Part shown: positions 1 through 5,703 of the stretch, piece by piece
Layout of the letters: each line of letters starts with the position of its first letter
Numbering within the stretch: position 1 is the stretch's first letter
DNA from: a virus
Taxonomy: Duplodnaviria > Heunggongvirae > Uroviricota > Caudoviricetes
Virus record (IMG/VR): IMGVR_UViG_2713896899_000008
Reading direction: 5' to 3' (one strand)
DNA length: 6,453 nt
Translations under genes and position numbers: made by a program
The notes under the pieces: model-generated
Database searches by the model: none
What the model was told of the DNA's origin: nothing
The model's input: the letters and a program-made list of their open reading frames with translations, nothing else

Positions 1-291
1 ATAGAAGTTCTGGCGAAAGAGCTGGTAGTTAGTGGCACGCTATATGGTTCAGGCCATGGAATATTTCCTTCAGAACAGGCTCGTAAGGACTGGATAAAAG
101 CCTGCAAAAAAATGTCGAGAGCGGCAGTGAAAAAGAAGAACGACCCCGACCTGGTTTATTCGTTGCCAGATAGCGAGATACGCCGTTACAACAGGAGACA
201 GAACATAATTTGCCGAGAGTGCCGTCAGAGCGAAACTATGCAGCGCGTGCTGGCTTTCTGGAAGGGAAGTTTGCAGGAGGTGGTACTGTGA
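1..291 (+). CDS. Hypothetical protein, C-terminal fragment (start lies upstream of window)
   Basis: Frame 1 is open from base 1 to TGA at 289-291 (96 codons, ...CRECRQSETMQRVLAFWKGSLQEVVL). Contains one CxxC pair. Same orientation as downstream phage genes. Family not recognised. Confidence 0.45.
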   Translation: MEVLAKELVVSGTLYGSGHGIFPSEQARKDWIKACKKMSRAAVKKKNDPDLVYSLPDSEIRRYNRRQNIICRECRQSETMQRVLAFWKGSLQEVVL

Positions 292-418
292 GCCAAATTA
301 ACAATCAGGACTGCGTGAAGTGAAAGAGAAAACATAATTCAAATCTGAATAATTAATCTCAGCACTGTAAATAAAATTTAATCCTTAACAGGAGGGATTC
401 CTGCACCCTCAAAACATC

Positions 419-452
419 AGGAGGCCGCCCGAAAGGGCGGTAATGAAAAATG
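419..452 (+). promoter_or_regulatory. Translation initiation region: AGGAGG (419-424), perfect 6-bp GAAA-tetraloop hairpin (425-440), ATG (450)
   Basis: CCGCCC-GAAA-GGGCGG is a perfect stem-loop placed exactly between a consensus SD and the start codon. Linear SD-ATG spacing is 25 nt; with the hairpin folded it is about 9 nt. Confidence 0.4.
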
Positions 453-857
453 ACTGAATTAACAAAAGAGCAATTAATCGAAGAAGCTAAATTAAAAATA
501 GCGATTGCGAAATGCCACCCCAATTCAGGGGTGGCACGAGTAGAGGGTGAGTTATTCAAAATTGCTCTGGCATCGCTGGAAGCAGAGCCGATAGCGTGGG
601 AATACGGCGAAAACATAATCCTGTTTAATCCTGACACAGTTGAAGCATACGCAAAACGTGCAGAGATAACACCTAAACCTCTATTCACCGCTACACCTGT
701 GCCACTGACACCAGAAGGATTGATTAAAGCAGTGTGTTTCTATGAACAGGTTAAGCGTGAAAATCCGCCAGTCGAAACCGGAGCATGGAAAGACGCTGTT
801 GACTGGGTACTCAAAGAGGCTTGCCAGGCTGTAAACATTGGCATCAAAGGAGAGTGA
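450..857 (+). CDS. Hypothetical phage protein (135 aa)
   Basis: ORF from ATG 450 to TGA 855-857. Its stop lies 1 nt before the next gene's ATG, inside that gene's SD spacer. No family recognised. Confidence 0.6.
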   Translation: MTELTKEQLIEEAKLKIAIAKCHPNSGVARVEGELFKIALASLEAEPIAWEYGENIILFNPDTVEAYAKRAEITPKPLFTATPVPLTPEGLIKAVCFYEQVKRENPPVETGAWKDAVDWVLKEACQAVNIGIKGE

Positions 858-858
858 T

Positions 859-1056
859 ATGGATAAAAACACAACTGCCTACTGGAGTCTGTCACTTGAT
901 ACCGAATGTCCCAGATGTGGTCACAATTTCGATCTGCTTTGTGATCCAGATTTCTGGGAGTTTTCTGGAGCTAAACAGGCATGTGAAGAAATAAAAGGTT
1001 ACGAAACATGCTGTCCAGAATGTAACCATGAATTTAAAACAGATTTCGTGTATTGA
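859..1056 (+). CDS. Small zinc-ribbon protein (65 aa, two CxxC pairs)
   Basis: ATG 859 is preceded by AAGGAG (847-852) at 6-nt spacing. The ORF-track start at 838 would overlap the upstream gene and has no SD. Product has CPRCG...CCPECNH, a typical 4-Cys zinc ribbon. Confidence 0.6.
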   Translation: MDKNTTAYWSLSLDTECPRCGHNFDLLCDPDFWEFSGAKQACEEIKGYETCCPECNHEFKTDFVY

Positions 1057-1066
1057 GGCATAACAA

Positions 1067-1282
1067 ATGACCACTATTACCAGAGAACAAGCTCTGAAAA
1101 TTATTGAAGCTGCCGATGAGGTTATTAGTGCGCTTGCCGGAACTAACGAGGATGTTCACCCTGGTAGCGATAACATGCTACGCCTGTGGGATGACCTGAA
1201 TGACCGTTACGCGCCGCCGGAAGTTGTGCGTGAGCTGGCACGGATTGCACTGGCGGTGTATTCGATTTGCCGCTGGGGGTAA
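1067..1282 (+). CDS. Hypothetical small protein (71 aa)
   Basis: ATG 1067 with GAGG (1055-1058) 8 nt upstream; the SD overlaps the stop of the preceding ORF. Ends TAA 1280-1282. Confidence 0.55.
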   Translation: MTTITREQALKIIEAADEVISALAGTNEDVHPGSDNMLRLWDDLNDRYAPPEVVRELARIALAVYSICRWG

Positions 1283-1557: not shown

Positions 1558-1587
1558 GTTAAGTAGAATTGCTGTGGGTGCTTGAGG
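1558..1587 (+). promoter_or_regulatory. hok mRNA 5' element complementary to the 3' end (tac-like)
   Basis: GTTAAGT (1558-1564) and GGGTGCTTGAGG (1576-1587) are antiparallel-complementary to ACTTAAC (1965-1971) and CCTCAACGCACCC (1950-1962, one bulged C), which sit just 5' of the hok terminator. Confidence 0.4.
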
Positions 1588-1744
1588 CTATCTGTCTCAG
1601 GCATGAACACCAACGGCAGATAGAGAAAAGCCCCAGTTAACATTACGCGTCCTGCAGGACGCTTAACATTAATCTGAGGCCAATTTCATGCTAGACACAT
1701 GTAGGTTAGCCTCTTACGTGCCGAAAGGCAAGGAGAAGCAGGCT

Positions 1745-1900
1745 ATGAAGCAGCAAAAGGCGATGTTAATCGCCCTGATCGTCATCTGTTTAACCGTCAT
1801 AGTGACGGCACTGGTAACGAGGAAAGACCTCTGCGAGGTACGAATCCGAACCGACCAGACGGAGGTCGCTGTCTTCACAGCTTATGAACCTGAGGAGTAA
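1745..1900 (+). CDS. hok: Hok/Gef-family type I toxin (51 aa), HokD/RelF-like
   Basis: Product MKQQKAMLIALIVICLTVIVTALVTRKDLCEVRIRTDQTEVAVFTAYEPEE matches the Hok family hallmark (N-terminal TM helix, conserved Cys, C-terminal periplasmic tail) and is near-identical to E. coli HokD as I recall it. SD AAGGAG (1730-1735) at 9-nt spacing. Confidence 0.9.
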   Translation: MKQQKAMLIALIVICLTVIVTALVTRKDLCEVRIRTDQTEVAVFTAYEPEE

Positions 1901-2067: not shown

Positions 2068-2346
2068 ATGGCGCACGATACCAAATTACACAATTCTGAT
2101 GATTCTGCCGTCTTTGCCAGCAGGTGTGGACGGCGTTTTCACGCATTCAAATCGGACTGGTTCCAGCATCCCCCATGCACTGAAGAGCAGGCTGAATGGA
2201 TAATTCAGTGTTACCGCAGGCGCGGATACGAGGTTAAGAAAGCCCTTAGTCTCGACTACCGTCACTGGATAATCTCAGTCAGATTGCCTTACTCCGAACG
2301 CCCACCACGTGCGTCCCGCACTTTCCAGCAACGGATCTGGAGGTAA
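2068..2346 (+). CDS. Hypothetical small protein (92 aa), at the position rem occupies between hokD and ydfU in Qin
   Basis: First ATG in the open frame is 2068. The ORF-track start at 1987 is a TTG inside the terminator T-tract. Stop TAA 2344-2346 lies inside the SD spacer of the next gene. SD for 2068 is weak. Confidence 0.4.
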   Translation: MAHDTKLHNSDDSAVFASRCGRRFHAFKSDWFQHPPCTEEQAEWIIQCYRRRGYEVKKALSLDYRHWIISVRLPYSERPPRASRTFQQRIWR

Positions 2347-2347
2347 C

Positions 2348-3403
2348 GTGCGGGTATTACTTAGACCTGTTCTGGTGCCTGAGCTTGGGCTGGTGGTCCT
2401 TAAGCCGGGCCGTGAATCCATACAGATATTTCATAATCCTCGAGTGCTGGTGGAACCGGAACCAAAAAGCATGCGTAATCTGCCATCCGGAGTCGTTCCT
2501 GCCGTTGGCCAGCCGCTGGCGGAAGACAAAACATTGCCGCCGTTTTTTAGTAACGAACGGGTGATTCGTGCTGCTGGCGGCGTTGGCGCATTGTCTGACT
2601 GGCTATTACGTCATGTTACATCCTGCCAGTGGCCTAATGGCGATTACCATCACACTGAAACAGTCATTCACCGTTATGGTACCGGCGCAATGGTGTTGTG
2701 CTGGCACTGCGACAACCAACTGCGTGACCAGACATCGGAATCACTGGAGCTGCTTGCTCAACAAAATCTGACAGCATGGGTGATTGACGTCATCCGTCAC
2801 GCAATAAGCGGTACGCAGGAGCGGGAATTATCTTTGGCTGAATTATCCTGGTGGGCGCTCTGCAATCAGGTGGCGGATGCGCTACCTGAGTCAGTATTAC
2901 GTCGTTCGCTGGGGTTGCGTGCGGAAAAAATCCGCTCAGTGTACCGTGAAAGCGACATCGTACCGGGAGAGCAGACCGCCACCAGCATACTGAAGCAGCG
3001 CACAAAAAATCTTGCGCCGCTGCCTCACGCCCACCAGCAAAACCCGCCACAGGAAAAGACGGTGGTCAGCATTGCCGTTGATCCGGAGTCACCGGCTCAG
3101 TATCTCCAGCGCCAGAAACCACAACGGGAAGAGATGCCTGTATACACGCGCTGGGTAAAAACGCAGAAATGCATGACGTGCGGTAATCAGGCGGATGATC
3201 CGCATCACATCATTGGTCATGGACTGGGAGGAATGGGAACAAAGGCTGATGATTTGTTTGTTATTCCGCTGTGTCGCAAATGCCATAACGAACTACACGC
3301 CGGAGTAAAAGATTTTGAAGACAAACACGGCAGCCAGTTGTTGTTGCTGATTCGTTTTTTAATGCACGCGAGAAATTCGGGCGTCCTGAAGTGGAAAGCA
3401 TAA
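2348..3403 (+). CDS. DUF968-family protein (YdfU-like) with C-terminal HNH-like zinc-binding nuclease motif
   Basis: GTG 2348 preceded by GGAGG (2339-2343). C-terminus CMTCGNQADDPHHIIGHG...CRKCHNELH has the CxxC...HH...CxxCH spacing of an HNH-type motif. Start is less certain: in-frame GTG 2309 and ATG 2471 are alternatives. Confidence 0.65.
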   Translation: MRVLLRPVLVPELGLVVLKPGRESIQIFHNPRVLVEPEPKSMRNLPSGVVPAVGQPLAEDKTLPPFFSNERVIRAAGGVGALSDWLLRHVTSCQWPNGDYHHTETVIHRYGTGAMVLCWHCDNQLRDQTSESLELLAQQNLTAWVIDVIRHAISGTQERELSLAELSWWALCNQVADALPESVLRRSLGLRAEKIRSVYRESDIVPGEQTATSILKQRTKNLAPLPHAHQQNPPQEKTVVSIAVDPESPAQYLQRQKPQREEMPVYTRWVKTQKCMTCGNQADDPHHIIGHGLGGMGTKADDLFVIPLCRKCHNELHAGVKDFEDKHGSQLLLLIRFLMHARNSGVLKWKA

Positions 3404-3769
3404 ATGACTGAACATATAGAATTTGTTTTGCCTTACCCGCCGTCGGTGAACACCTACTGGCGCCGTCGTGGTGGCGTATATTTTGTATCAAAAGCCGGTG
3501 AGTGTTATCGCCGGGATGTGGCGCTTATTGTTCGCCAGAAGCGACTGAAATTAAATCTGTCCGGTAGGTTGGCAATCAGGATTATTGCAGAGCCACCGGA
3601 TAAGCGCCGCCGCGACCTGGACAATATCCTGAAAGCACCACTGGATGCGCTGACGCATGCCGGACTTCTTATAGACGACGAGCAGTTTGATGAAATCAAT
3701 ATTGTGCGCGGTCAGCTCGTTCCTGGTGGGCGGCTGGGGATAAAAATCACAGAACTGGAGTGCGCATGA
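3404..3769 (+). CDS. rusA: RusA-family Holliday junction resolvase (121 aa)
   Basis: ATG 3404 directly abuts the upstream stop (TAA 3401-3403). Product carries the RusA signature PPDKRRRDLDNILKAPLDALT and a C-terminal GGRL motif, closely paralleling E. coli RusA. Confidence 0.88.
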   Translation: MTEHIEFVLPYPPSVNTYWRRRGGVYFVSKAGECYRRDVALIVRQKRLKLNLSGRLAIRIIAEPPDKRRRDLDNILKAPLDALTHAGLLIDDEQFDEINIVRGQLVPGGRLGIKITELECA

Positions 3770-4455
3770 ATAGCCAGTATTTACAGTTTGTGCGTGAGCA
3801 GCTCATTATCGCCACCGCTGATTTGAGTGGGGCAACAAAAGGTCAGCTTGAAGCCTGGCAGGAGAATGCCATGTTCGATACAGGGCGTTACAGGCGTAAA
3901 AAAATCCGGTACCGGGATGAGGTGACTGGAAAAATGATAACGCGGGATAATCCACCAATCCCGGGAAAACAATCACTGGCGAAGGGGACGTCAATTCCTC
4001 TGGTCAGTCCGGTTGAGTTTTCGACATCATCGTGGCGGCGGGCTGTTCTGTCTCTTGAAGAACATCATAAAGCCTGGTTGTTGTGGTGTTACAGCGGGAA
4101 TATTTGTTGGGAATATCAGATCGCGATAACACAGTGGGCGTGGAATGAATTTAATACTCAATCCGGTACCAGAAAAATTGCAGGGAAAACGCAGGAACGC
4201 CTGAAAAAATTAATCTGGCTGGCGGCGCAGGCAGTAAAAGCAGAACTTTTTGGTGGGGAAGGTTATGAATACCAGGAGCTGGCATTACTGGCGGGAGTGA
4301 CAACTAAAAACTGGTCCAAAACATTTACTCGTCACTGGGTTGCAATGAAACACATTTTTTACCGACTGGATAGTGAGGCTTTATTGTTTGTAATGAGAAC
4401 ACGTTCAAAACAAAAGGTGGCATTTTCAAAGCAAAGTGTTGCAAAAGTAGATTGA
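3766..4455 (+). CDS. Putative late-gene antiterminator Q (QuuQ/phage-82-type, not the lambda zinc-finger type)
   Basis: ATG 3766 overlaps the rusA stop (ATGA). It sits immediately upstream of a promoter-terminator pair and the lysis cassette, the canonical Q position. Assignment is mainly positional; no zinc-finger motif. Confidence 0.55.
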   Translation: MNSQYLQFVREQLIIATADLSGATKGQLEAWQENAMFDTGRYRRKKIRYRDEVTGKMITRDNPPIPGKQSLAKGTSIPLVSPVEFSTSSWRRAVLSLEEHHKAWLLWCYSGNICWEYQIAITQWAWNEFNTQSGTRKIAGKTQERLKKLIWLAAQAVKAELFGGEGYEYQELALLAGVTTKNWSKTFTRHWVAMKHIFYRLDSEALLFVMRTRSKQKVAFSKQSVAKVD

Positions 4456-4666: not shown

Positions 4667-4742
4667 GGCCCTTTAGCTCAGTGGTGAGAGCGAGCGACTC
4701 ATAATCGCCAGGTCGCTGGTTCAAATCCAGCAAGGGCCACCA
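4667..4742 (+). tRNA. tRNA with CAU anticodon, ileX/ileZ-like (tRNA-Ile2, lysidine type; Met not excluded by anticodon alone)
   Basis: 76 nt cloverleaf: acceptor GGCCCTT/AAGGGCC, D-stem GCTC/GAGC, anticodon loop CTCATAA, T-loop TTCAAAT, A73, encoded CCA. Overall sequence resembles E. coli ileX. Confidence 0.88.
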
Positions 4743-4743
4743 A

Positions 4744-4820
4744 CCGCCACTAGCTCATCAGGAAAGAGCGTCAACCCTTTAAGTTGAGTGTGCGAGGTTC
4801 GAGTCCCCGGTGGCGGTCCA
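4744..4820 (+). tRNA. Atypical tRNA, anticodon loop CCTTTAA (nominal anticodon UUU, Lys)
   Basis: 77 nt cloverleaf: acceptor CCGCCAC/GTGGCGG (C1:G72), D-stem GCTC/GAGC, anticodon stem TCAAC/GTTGA, T-arm CGAGG-TTCGAGT-CCCCG, U73, encoded CCA. C at position 33 and U73 are unusual for a Lys tRNA. Confidence 0.6.
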
Positions 4821-4822
4821 GT

Positions 4823-4898
<76 letters not shown>

Positions 4899-4901
4899 TA
4901 T

Positions 4902-4976
<75 letters not shown>

Positions 4977-5139: not shown

Positions 5140-5703
5140 TTAGTTTTTATTCGCCGTCCATTTACCACAAATTGGTCTGGAGAAGATTGCCAGAATGGCA
5201 ATAAAGGATATTTCAATTGAAACAGACCAGCATATATGTCCAATCAGTTCGCTCCAGAATTCATAGCCGTTTAGATTCCATAGCCACCCTCTTTCATGGC
5301 CGGGAAGATACGCGGGAAATCTGAAGCCCAGCGCGGGTATTAAAATACCATGCATGACTAATGTAATAAGAATTCCATATACAGCCCCATACCACATGCG
5401 GACTCGTGGAATAAAAACAGACAGGTATATGTATACAAAGGCAAAAATGAAACTAAAAAGCCAATGATAGAGCATAACAGCTCCGGGAATTGTTACTCCC
5501 TGGTAAATGTAATCCAGCGAGTGTGAATTTATTCCCAGAAAACCCAACCAGGCGTCGATATTCATTGCTGGTGGAGAAATTTCTCCGGCCATTCTTGGGG
5601 GCATGTTAGCTTCAGTTCCTGATTTCACCAGAGAGCTGATCGCGCCACCGACCAGTGTTGCCCAAAGTATGATTTTTAGATTTACGCTATTCCATTTACA
5701 CAT
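5140..5703 (-). CDS. DUF1440/YagU-family inner membrane protein (187 aa)
   Basis: Minus-strand ATG at 5703-5701 is preceded by GAGG at 6-nt spacing; stop is TAA (complement of 5140-5142). Product shares blocks with E. coli YagU as recalled (VKSGTEANMPPR, MWYG, MHGILIPALG, SELIGHICWSVSIEI). The 280-aa ORF-track version is rejected as an N-terminal extension. Confidence 0.62.
   Translation of the reverse strand: MCKWNSVNLKIILWATLVGGAISSLVKSGTEANMPPRMAGEISPPAMNIDAWLGFLGINSHSLDYIYQGVTIPGAVMLYHWLFSFIFAFVYIYLSVFIPRVRMWYGAVYGILITLVMHGILIPALGFRFPAYLPGHERGWLWNLNGYEFWSELIGHICWSVSIEISFIAILAIFSRPICGKWTANKN

Follow-up and report, generated by a model that had tools for sequence, protein, structure and literature searches.

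A three-ORF cluster in an Escherichia albertii prophage as a probable assortment of interchangeable ea-type accessory cassettes

IMG/VR virus record IMGVR_UViG_2713896899_000008 includes a stretch of 6,453 nucleotides (nt), referred to here in its full length as the window, in which three small open reading frames (ORF1, ORF2, and ORF3) are packed head to tail between positions 450 and 1282. A preliminary description based on the letters of the window had taken this packing as a sign of translational coupling and hence of co-function. Here, we propose that the cluster is one assortment of interchangeable ea-type accessory cassettes and not a dedicated three-protein system, a reading to which we give a probability of roughly 0.75. 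ORF1 is a modular, mosaic protein of the Eaa/Ea22 type. ORF2 is a genuine minimal zinc ribbon with four cysteines as its putative ligands. ORF3 is a truncated chimeric 5′ remnant, neither an intact gene nor a third independent protein family. The features of the window are listed in Table 1.

Table 1. Features of the cluster and its surroundings, with positions counted from the first letter of the window and residues (aa) from the start of each protein
Feature	Position	Strand	Remarks
ORF1	450–857	+	135 aa
ORF1 N-module	aa 1–38 (450–563)	+	helical hairpin
ORF1 linker ALASLEAEP	aa 39–47 (564–590)	+	
Intragenic linker island	559–599	+	codes for (K)IALASLEAEP(IAW); near-identical DNA in otherwise unrelated genes
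ORF1 middle module	aa 48–79		small β/α
ORF1 Pro-rich connector			PLFTATPVPLTPEG; alignment consensus PLFxAxPVPxxPEG
ORF1 C-terminal module	aa 88–135, from about 682	+	helical hairpin, aa 88–132
Junction 1	846–861	+	AAAGGAGAG (846–854), TGA (855–857), T, ATG (859–861)
ORF2	859–1056	+	65 aa; start ATG
ORF2 putative ligands	C17 907–909; C20 916–918; C52 1012–1014; C55 1021–1023	+	
Junction 2	1051–1069	+	TAT, TGA (1054–1056), GGCATAACAA, ATG (1067); GAGG (1055–1058) overlaps the ORF2 stop
ORF3	1067–1282	+	71 aa
ORF3 authentic part (N-module)	aa 1–62 (1067–1254)	+	MTTITREQALKII...ELARIALA; from an Ea22-type modular gene
ORF3 fusion point and foreign tail	1247–1282	+	8-nt overlap GCACTGGC (1247–1254), then VYSICRWG and stop
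Conserved leader of the first cassette	332–449	+	84–95% identical in loci L002–L005 and L009
DUF977 gene, 3′ end	1–291		
sok/hok	1576–1900		complete type I toxin–antitoxin locus
DUF968 gene	2309–3403		
RusA gene	3404–3769		
Q gene	3760–4455		
tRNA array	4667–4976		four genes (Met-CAT, Lys-TTT, Thr-TGT, Gly-TCC), downstream of Q
YagU/DUF1440 membrane-protein gene	5140–5982	−	280 aa as ORF; long N-terminal extension

The three ORFs, their spacing (1 nt between ORF1 and ORF2 and 10 nt between ORF2 and ORF3), and the overlap of both downstream Shine–Dalgarno (SD) sequences with the preceding stop codon are read directly from the sequence, and the architecture is that of translational coupling. We surveyed 66 loci carrying the ORF2 cassette (labeled with L numbers below), 61 of them close (at least 89% nucleotide identity) and five at ~77% identity, with gene-body types clustered at 50% identity. 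Both junctions are almost unchanged at the base level across the 61 independent close loci, which indicates more than chance spacing. The final three codons of ORF1, which encode its K-G-E C terminus, contain the SD for ORF2, and junction 1 is found in the 61 loci whatever the upstream gene. Its SD, AAAGGAGA[GC], is intact in 58 of them, stop and ATG are 1 nt apart in 55 and 5 nt apart in six, and the upstream gene ends in KG[ED] before the stop in 59. Junction 2 occurs with 0–4 substitutions and a constant 10-nt gap in all 61, and the gene behind it begins MTT[IF]T[KR][ED] every time.

The genes joined by these junctions are variable. The close loci contain 15 upstream types, eight downstream N-module types, and about 13 C-terminal types in 39 combinations. 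The C-terminal module of ORF1 stands upstream of ORF2 at two of the 61 loci (the window and L005), and the N-module type of ORF3 stands downstream at 30. At the five loci with ~77% identity, the neighbors are unrelated and include a DEAD-box helicase of 547 aa on the downstream side; those of ORF2 in virulent Klebsiella phages are likewise unrelated. The neighborhood of the wider ORF2 family was sampled thinly, at one viral locus for each of two distant members. The trio thus does not keep the same partners across independent lineages, as a conserved operon would. Since the same junctions accompany interchangeable partners, the tight coupling is a property of the junctions and not evidence of co-function, and the co-function that the preliminary description derived from the coupling is not supported.

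A further DNA island lies within ORF1, at the linker between its N-terminal and middle modules. The linker is nearly invariant in the alignment of ORF1 homologs, as ALASLEAEP(I/V)AW, and 29–32 nt of its DNA are 100% identical to stretches of several different genes at L002 and L003. The same codons also encode it in 35 unique contexts, the flanks of which are unrelated (TCG in 74%, GCA in 83–86%, GAA in 100%, and CTG in 94%), which points to shared DNA rather than convergence at the protein level.

ORF1 matches three PHROG profiles, phrog_660 (E = 5.9e-49, aa 1–134), phrog_26213 (E = 6.9e-33, aa 62–135), and phrog_5117 (E = 1.2e-26), and belongs to the Eaa type on the basis of profile coverage over most of the protein. 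The alignment of its 1614 homologs shows mosaicism module by module, and the DNA breakpoints within ORF1 lie in the linker (559–599) and at 682. Its modules recur with other partners, for example in DUF551 proteins, in an "Eaa protein", and in one protein whose N terminus belongs to Pfam Ead_Ea22; in the protein P0086, a PF13935 N terminus is fused to the middle and C-terminal modules of ORF1. Full-length homologs of 135 aa with 87–91% identity are found on hundreds of contigs. In the AlphaFold2 model (mean predicted local distance difference test score, pLDDT, 67), the N-terminal helical hairpin (residues 6–43) reaches 80–90 and is followed by a small β/α unit, then by a connector without order and by another helical hairpin. 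A Foldseek search of this model against PDB and BFVD gave uncharacterized phage proteins only, with nothing significant or informative. No Pfam or NCBIfam family matched ORF1 or ORF3 at E ≤ 0.1, and both fall outside the Ead/Ea22 models (PF13935 and "ead/Ea22-like"). In its modular build, ORF1 does conform to the Ead/Ea22 proteins, and it shares actual modules and the ALASLEAEP linker with bona fide members.

Two loci illustrate related builds. In Escherichia coli LR-28 (L001, 6232–6752), the ORF2 cassette is followed by a gene that joins the N-module of ORF3 to the C-terminal module of ORF1. An unrelated viral contig (L073, 4926–5464) has two tandem small ORFs with an ORF1-like build, consisting of an N-terminal helical segment, EPEPVAW or EPEPVGY, and a short domain ending in PLY or PVY. 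The ORF1-type architecture may therefore reach past enterobacterial phages.

The first 61–63 residues of ORF3 are 98–100% identical to the N termini of longer proteins (at least 100–125 aa), which continue with SLEAEP and diverse C-terminal parts, some of them DUF550 or DUF551. At other loci, full-length genes of 137–423 aa stand downstream of ORF2. Positions 836–1254 of the window align to ORF2 and the 5′ portion of full-length genes of the DUF551 type (L001, L006, and L007), and positions 1247–1750 align to the sequence 3′ of the cassette that comes last in L004 and L009. Together, these alignments span ORF3, and they share the 8 nt GCACTGGC. In related prophages, the cassette array is closed by a hydrophobic ORF of 27 aa, MTWPEAFTTVGIAMAVALVVYSICRWG, which is conserved, mostly unannotated, and overlaps the preceding gene by ATGA; it is located at 3329–3412 in L004 and also occurs in L009, L002, and L005 (window equivalent, 1255–1282). 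The tail of ORF3, VYSICRWG and the stop, is the last eight codons of this ORF, fused in frame. The exact 71-aa chimera was found in E. albertii only, on 22–24 contigs. ORF3 is not a member of DUF551 (PF04448) or DUF550 (PF04447), giving no Pfam match and ending at the linker, because that domain was deleted. The pairwise ratio of nonsynonymous to synonymous substitution rates (dN/dS) of its N-module is 0.14, as calculated for the first 61 codons of 10 alleles from loci with the same module type, which indicates purifying selection on this module. ORF3 itself probably has no function; at most, it is an N-module without a head.

As to ORF2, its match to PHROG 4173 (E = 1.9e-27) covers the whole protein; all 61 aligned relatives match this profile as well, and ORF2 has the features of that family, namely two CxxC knuckles and four invariant cysteines. 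Its cysteine motifs are CPRC (C17 and C20) and CCPEC. Trp9, Cys17, Cys20, Cys52, and Cys55 are invariant across the 61 diverse relatives, and Cys51 varies; the putative metal ligands are therefore the two CxxC knuckles, with Cys52 and Cys55, not Cys51, forming the second. The zinc ribbon assigned earlier to the middle protein is borne out by these residues and by the profile match. An exhaustive HMMER search gave 215 clusters at 50% identity (E ≤ 1e-3), mostly of stand-alone proteins of 60–70 aa. The pairwise dN/dS of ~0.06 (26–31 alleles) indicates strong purifying selection. Among 5426 E. coli genomes, 83 carry an intact copy (198 nt), plasmids of phage-plasmid size included. The gene is also found in 43 phage records, which comprise P22-like Salmonella phages, virulent Klebsiella myophages (82–86% amino-acid identity), and phages of Enterobacter, Erwinia, and Yersinia (40–55%). 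ORF2 is a real, constrained, and self-contained phage gene. An alternative start at TTG 838 was rejected, as the family alignments begin at the ATG.

The AlphaFold2 model of ORF2 (pLDDT 64) contains two β-hairpin knuckles and a helix in a zinc-ribbon topology; like the model of ORF1, it is in keeping with small modules that stand independently. A Foldseek search against PDB and BFVD gave no significant match, and when PDB was searched by sequence, with the proteins singly or with the profile of the ORF2 family, zinc fingers at chance level were the only matches. ORF2 scored 19.3 bits with YnfU (NF038384/PF23499), below the curated cut-off of 36, and 13 of the 61 relatives had weak PF23499 matches. 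Cys_rich_CPXG (PF14255) gave no match to ORF2 at E ≤ 0.1 and weak matches in seven of the relatives; "CPXCG motif-containing cysteine-rich protein" is a UniRef source label carried by cluster mates only. With the zinc-ribbon models of Pfam, the ORF2 family gave only generic signals below threshold, and ORF2 itself stayed under the curated cut-off of each of these models. The profile and structure searches for the three proteins thus returned PHROG families of unknown function only, and no confident homology to nin housekeeping proteins was found; classical nin genes were rejected accordingly. The statement that none of the three was recognizable is right in that no match to a protein of known function was obtained, and needs amendment in that the families, Eaa/Ea22-type and PHROG 4173, are recognized.

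Based on the survey and the analysis of the three ORFs, we propose the following explanation. Head-to-tail genes are joined by junctions conserved as DNA, where the closing codons or the stop of one gene contain the SD of the next. The 30-nt ALASLEAEP linker is a second type of island, placed inside the Ea22-type genes with a helical-hairpin module on its N-terminal side and variable domains on its C-terminal side. The modules flanking these islands are exchanged freely among phages, prophages, and phage-plasmids, and the junctions and the linker would serve phage recombination as short-homology crossover sites. The junctions with the SD in the stop would also give coupled, roughly equimolar translation off the early transcript, and each cassette product would act independently. 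ORF1 would be a small accessory protein with a scaffold and a variable head, by analogy with lambda Ea22. ORF2 would act alone, binding a target of the host or a nucleic acid in the early phase of infection; it is regarded as a self-contained zinc-ribbon binder because it is kept in temperate and virulent phages alike. ORF3 represents an exchange gone wrong, in which the N-module was fused in frame at the linker, through the 8-nt overlap, to the tail of the 27-aa ORF. This event deleted the linker and the C-terminal domain, and the product looks like a by-product of shuffling.

Several points weigh against this explanation. The matching families of all three proteins are of "unknown function". 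In the close enterobacterial subfamily, ORF2 is kept between Ea22-type modular genes at 61 of 61 loci, and it may have a loose functional link with the Ea22-type class. The role of the junctions and the linker as crossover sites is suggested by comparative patterns and not by observed recombination. The structure models are of modest confidence (pLDDT 64–67). Since neither ORF1 nor ORF3 reaches the Ead/Ea22 models of Pfam and NCBIfam, the analogy with Ea22 concerns architecture alone.

A stronger version of the proposal, which we consider rather unlikely, is that the junctions and the in-frame linker are not mere traces of recombination but a selected "grammar", with which lambdoid, P22-like, and phage-plasmid genomes recombine N-modules, C-terminal heads, and entire small genes at will. 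The array would then be a combinatorial generator of early effectors, for example, counter-defense or superinfection-related ones, and ORF2 would be its constant member with a host target of its own.

The constancy of junction 2 also allows the reading that ORF2 and the next downstream Ea22-type gene, with its MTT[IF]T[KR]E start, form a conserved functional pair through the N-module or the linker. Such a gene lies 10 nt downstream of ORF2 at every close locus, the linker motif is present in at least 49 of the 61 downstream genes (several of the other 12 have a variant, e.g., IVLASLEAEP), and the N-module type of ORF3 is the partner in 30. However, the eight N-module types are unrelated to each other, and the constant first seven residues belong to the junction DNA. 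Relatives of ORF2 in Klebsiella phages (85% amino-acid identity) are followed by a helicase, and the distant members at L073 and L074 are without such a neighbor immediately downstream. We regard a functional pair as unlikely.

It is less probable still that the three proteins work as a single unit (for example, a complex, or a system for host takeover or anti-defense) whose stoichiometry is set by the coupling. The short gaps of 1 and 10 nt, the SD/stop overlap, and the stable inheritance of the trio in an E. albertii lineage fit such a unit. Yet the three-gene arrangement was found in none of 5426 complete E. coli genomes and none of 50,697 phage records, where matches cover parts of it only; the same junctions tie ORF2 to 15 upstream and eight downstream module types; Klebsiella, Erwinia, and Yersinia phages carry ORF2 without either partner; and ORF3 is a truncated chimera. 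PADLOC-DB gave no match for ORF1, ORF2, or ORF3 at E ≤ 0.1. A toxin–antitoxin or defense system was rejected, as there were neither matches nor conserved partners, and no mention of these families was found in the literature on anti-defense roles of ea or exo–xis genes.

Equally improbable is that the small ORFs are chance ORFs or non-functional debris of a decaying prophage, as the truncation of ORF3, the insertion sequences (ISs) in and beside the cluster in some E. albertii strains, and the possibly cryptic state of the prophage might suggest, given the dN/dS of 0.06 and five invariant residues of ORF2, its full-length presence in E. coli genomes and in phages, virulent ones included, and the many full-length homologs of ORF1.

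The preferred reading, an assortment of interchangeable cassettes, also accords with where such cassettes are found. The window is from a lambdoid prophage of E. albertii, and the cluster occupies a nin-equivalent slot of the early-right operon, as judged from its flanks, the DUF977 gene on one side and hok, DUF968, rusA, and Q on the other; the nin-region placement given in the preliminary description is therefore correct. The Eaa/Ea22-type families of ORF1 and ORF3 belong mostly to the early-left exo–xis region: among the loci whose position could be assigned, the ORF2 cassette was placed on the exo–xis ("ea") side, by abc2, ssb, xis, and int, at 33 loci versus two in the nin slot, and on a phage-plasmid at one. 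The exact sequences of all three proteins are recorded from E. albertii (22–30 contigs each), and several assemblies of this species share the order replication genes, DUF1627, DUF977, ORF1, ORF2, ORF3, hok, DUF968, RusA, and Q. In some E. albertii strains (L075), an IS3-family element (L075, 2457–3929) interrupts ORF2 and leaves a stump of 51 aa, and a second IS lies between ORF3 and hok (L075–L077, 4620–5714). The cluster region thus tolerates disruption in lysogens, and ORF2, being interrupted in one strain, is dispensable for the lysogen.

The leader of the first cassette precedes an ORF1-type gene or a DUF7167 gene, depending on the locus (L002–L005 and L009). It contains an SD-like AGGAGG at 419–424, 26 nt from the ATG of ORF1. 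A 7-bp hairpin with a GAAA tetraloop (GCCGCCC-GAAA-GGGCGGT, about 424–442) is predicted between the two, with z = −2.6 for a 76-nt stretch, and 8 nt separate it from the ATG. The stem in L004 has one compensatory change, from G:C to A:T. If the hairpin folds, it may bring AGGAGG to ~8 nt from the ORF1 start, in the manner of a split ribosome-binding site. An Rfam scan of the window found sok and the tRNAs only, leaving the leader hairpin without a family.

Further downstream, a match to Rfam RF01794 (115 bits) marks the sok antitoxin RNA, which overlaps a mok/hok reading frame that matches Pfam HOK_GEF, and a terminator-like hairpin follows the locus at 1969–1986. Just 5′ of sok/hok, a strongly hydrophobic ORF of 34 aa, MWEVIVLVLKCALAIAAVMAIYCLVIVLMEHLSD, lies at 1429–1533 on the plus strand; the region is 89–92% conserved in E. 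coli prophages (L004, L009, and L010), and the ORF may encode a small membrane peptide. The tRNA array and the YagU/DUF1440 gene form a moron-like insertion ahead of the lysis genes.

These results bear on how phage early operons are read, as tight spacing and SD–stop overlap can belong to cassette junctions and need not be evidence of co-function. The cluster is also a clear case of domains being shuffled at an in-frame linker of 30 nt, with the ORF3 chimera as a failed product. PHROG 4173, broadly conserved and strongly constrained in temperate and virulent phages, is a reasonable candidate for functional screening. The cluster itself is an ordinary instance of a mosaic type that is already known, with its modules newly combined, and the current understanding of lambdoid phages is unaltered.

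In the classical modular-evolution model, conserved "linker" sequences at gene boundaries were proposed as crossover points in lambdoid mosaicism. The islands described here are like those linkers in that short, near-identical DNA separates unrelated modules, and unlike them in that one island is intragenic, at a domain boundary. Because this island lies within the coding sequence at such a boundary, it shuffles protein domains in addition to whole genes.

Lambda Ea22 is an early, oligomeric (tetrameric), pro-lysogenic protein (PMC10834534, PMC7093339), and mosaicism with swappable C-terminal domains is documented for Ea22 variants (PMC10834534). ORF1 and the full-length relatives of ORF3 resemble lambda Ea22 and the variants of Shiga toxin (Stx) phages as accessory proteins of an early operon that consist of a short segment at the N terminus, a helical region, and an exchangeable domain at the C terminus. 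The Stx-phage variants lie in the exo–xis region, are assigned to InterPro Ead_Ea22, and in some cases have a DUF551 C-terminal domain; the full-length relatives of ORF3 carry DUF551 or DUF550. Unlike lambda Ea22, ORF1 and ORF3 have a short helical hairpin instead of a long coiled coil and are located in the early-right nin-equivalent slot, not between exo and xis. As to the P22-type ea genes (EaA/Eaa, Ead, and others) of P22-like and lambdoid prophages, close relatives of ORF1 bear the database names "Eaa protein" and "EaA protein", and the ORF2 cassette lies in that region at 33 of the surveyed loci. In the E. albertii prophage, by contrast, the cassettes have moved to the other early operon, ORF3 is truncated, and the module combination of ORF1 is common to few genomes only. 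ORF2 agrees with PHROG 4173 in its full-length match, its length, and the W...CPxC...CPxC signature, and this family, which has no assigned function, weakly resembles the YnfU, TRASH, and generic Zn_ribbon families.

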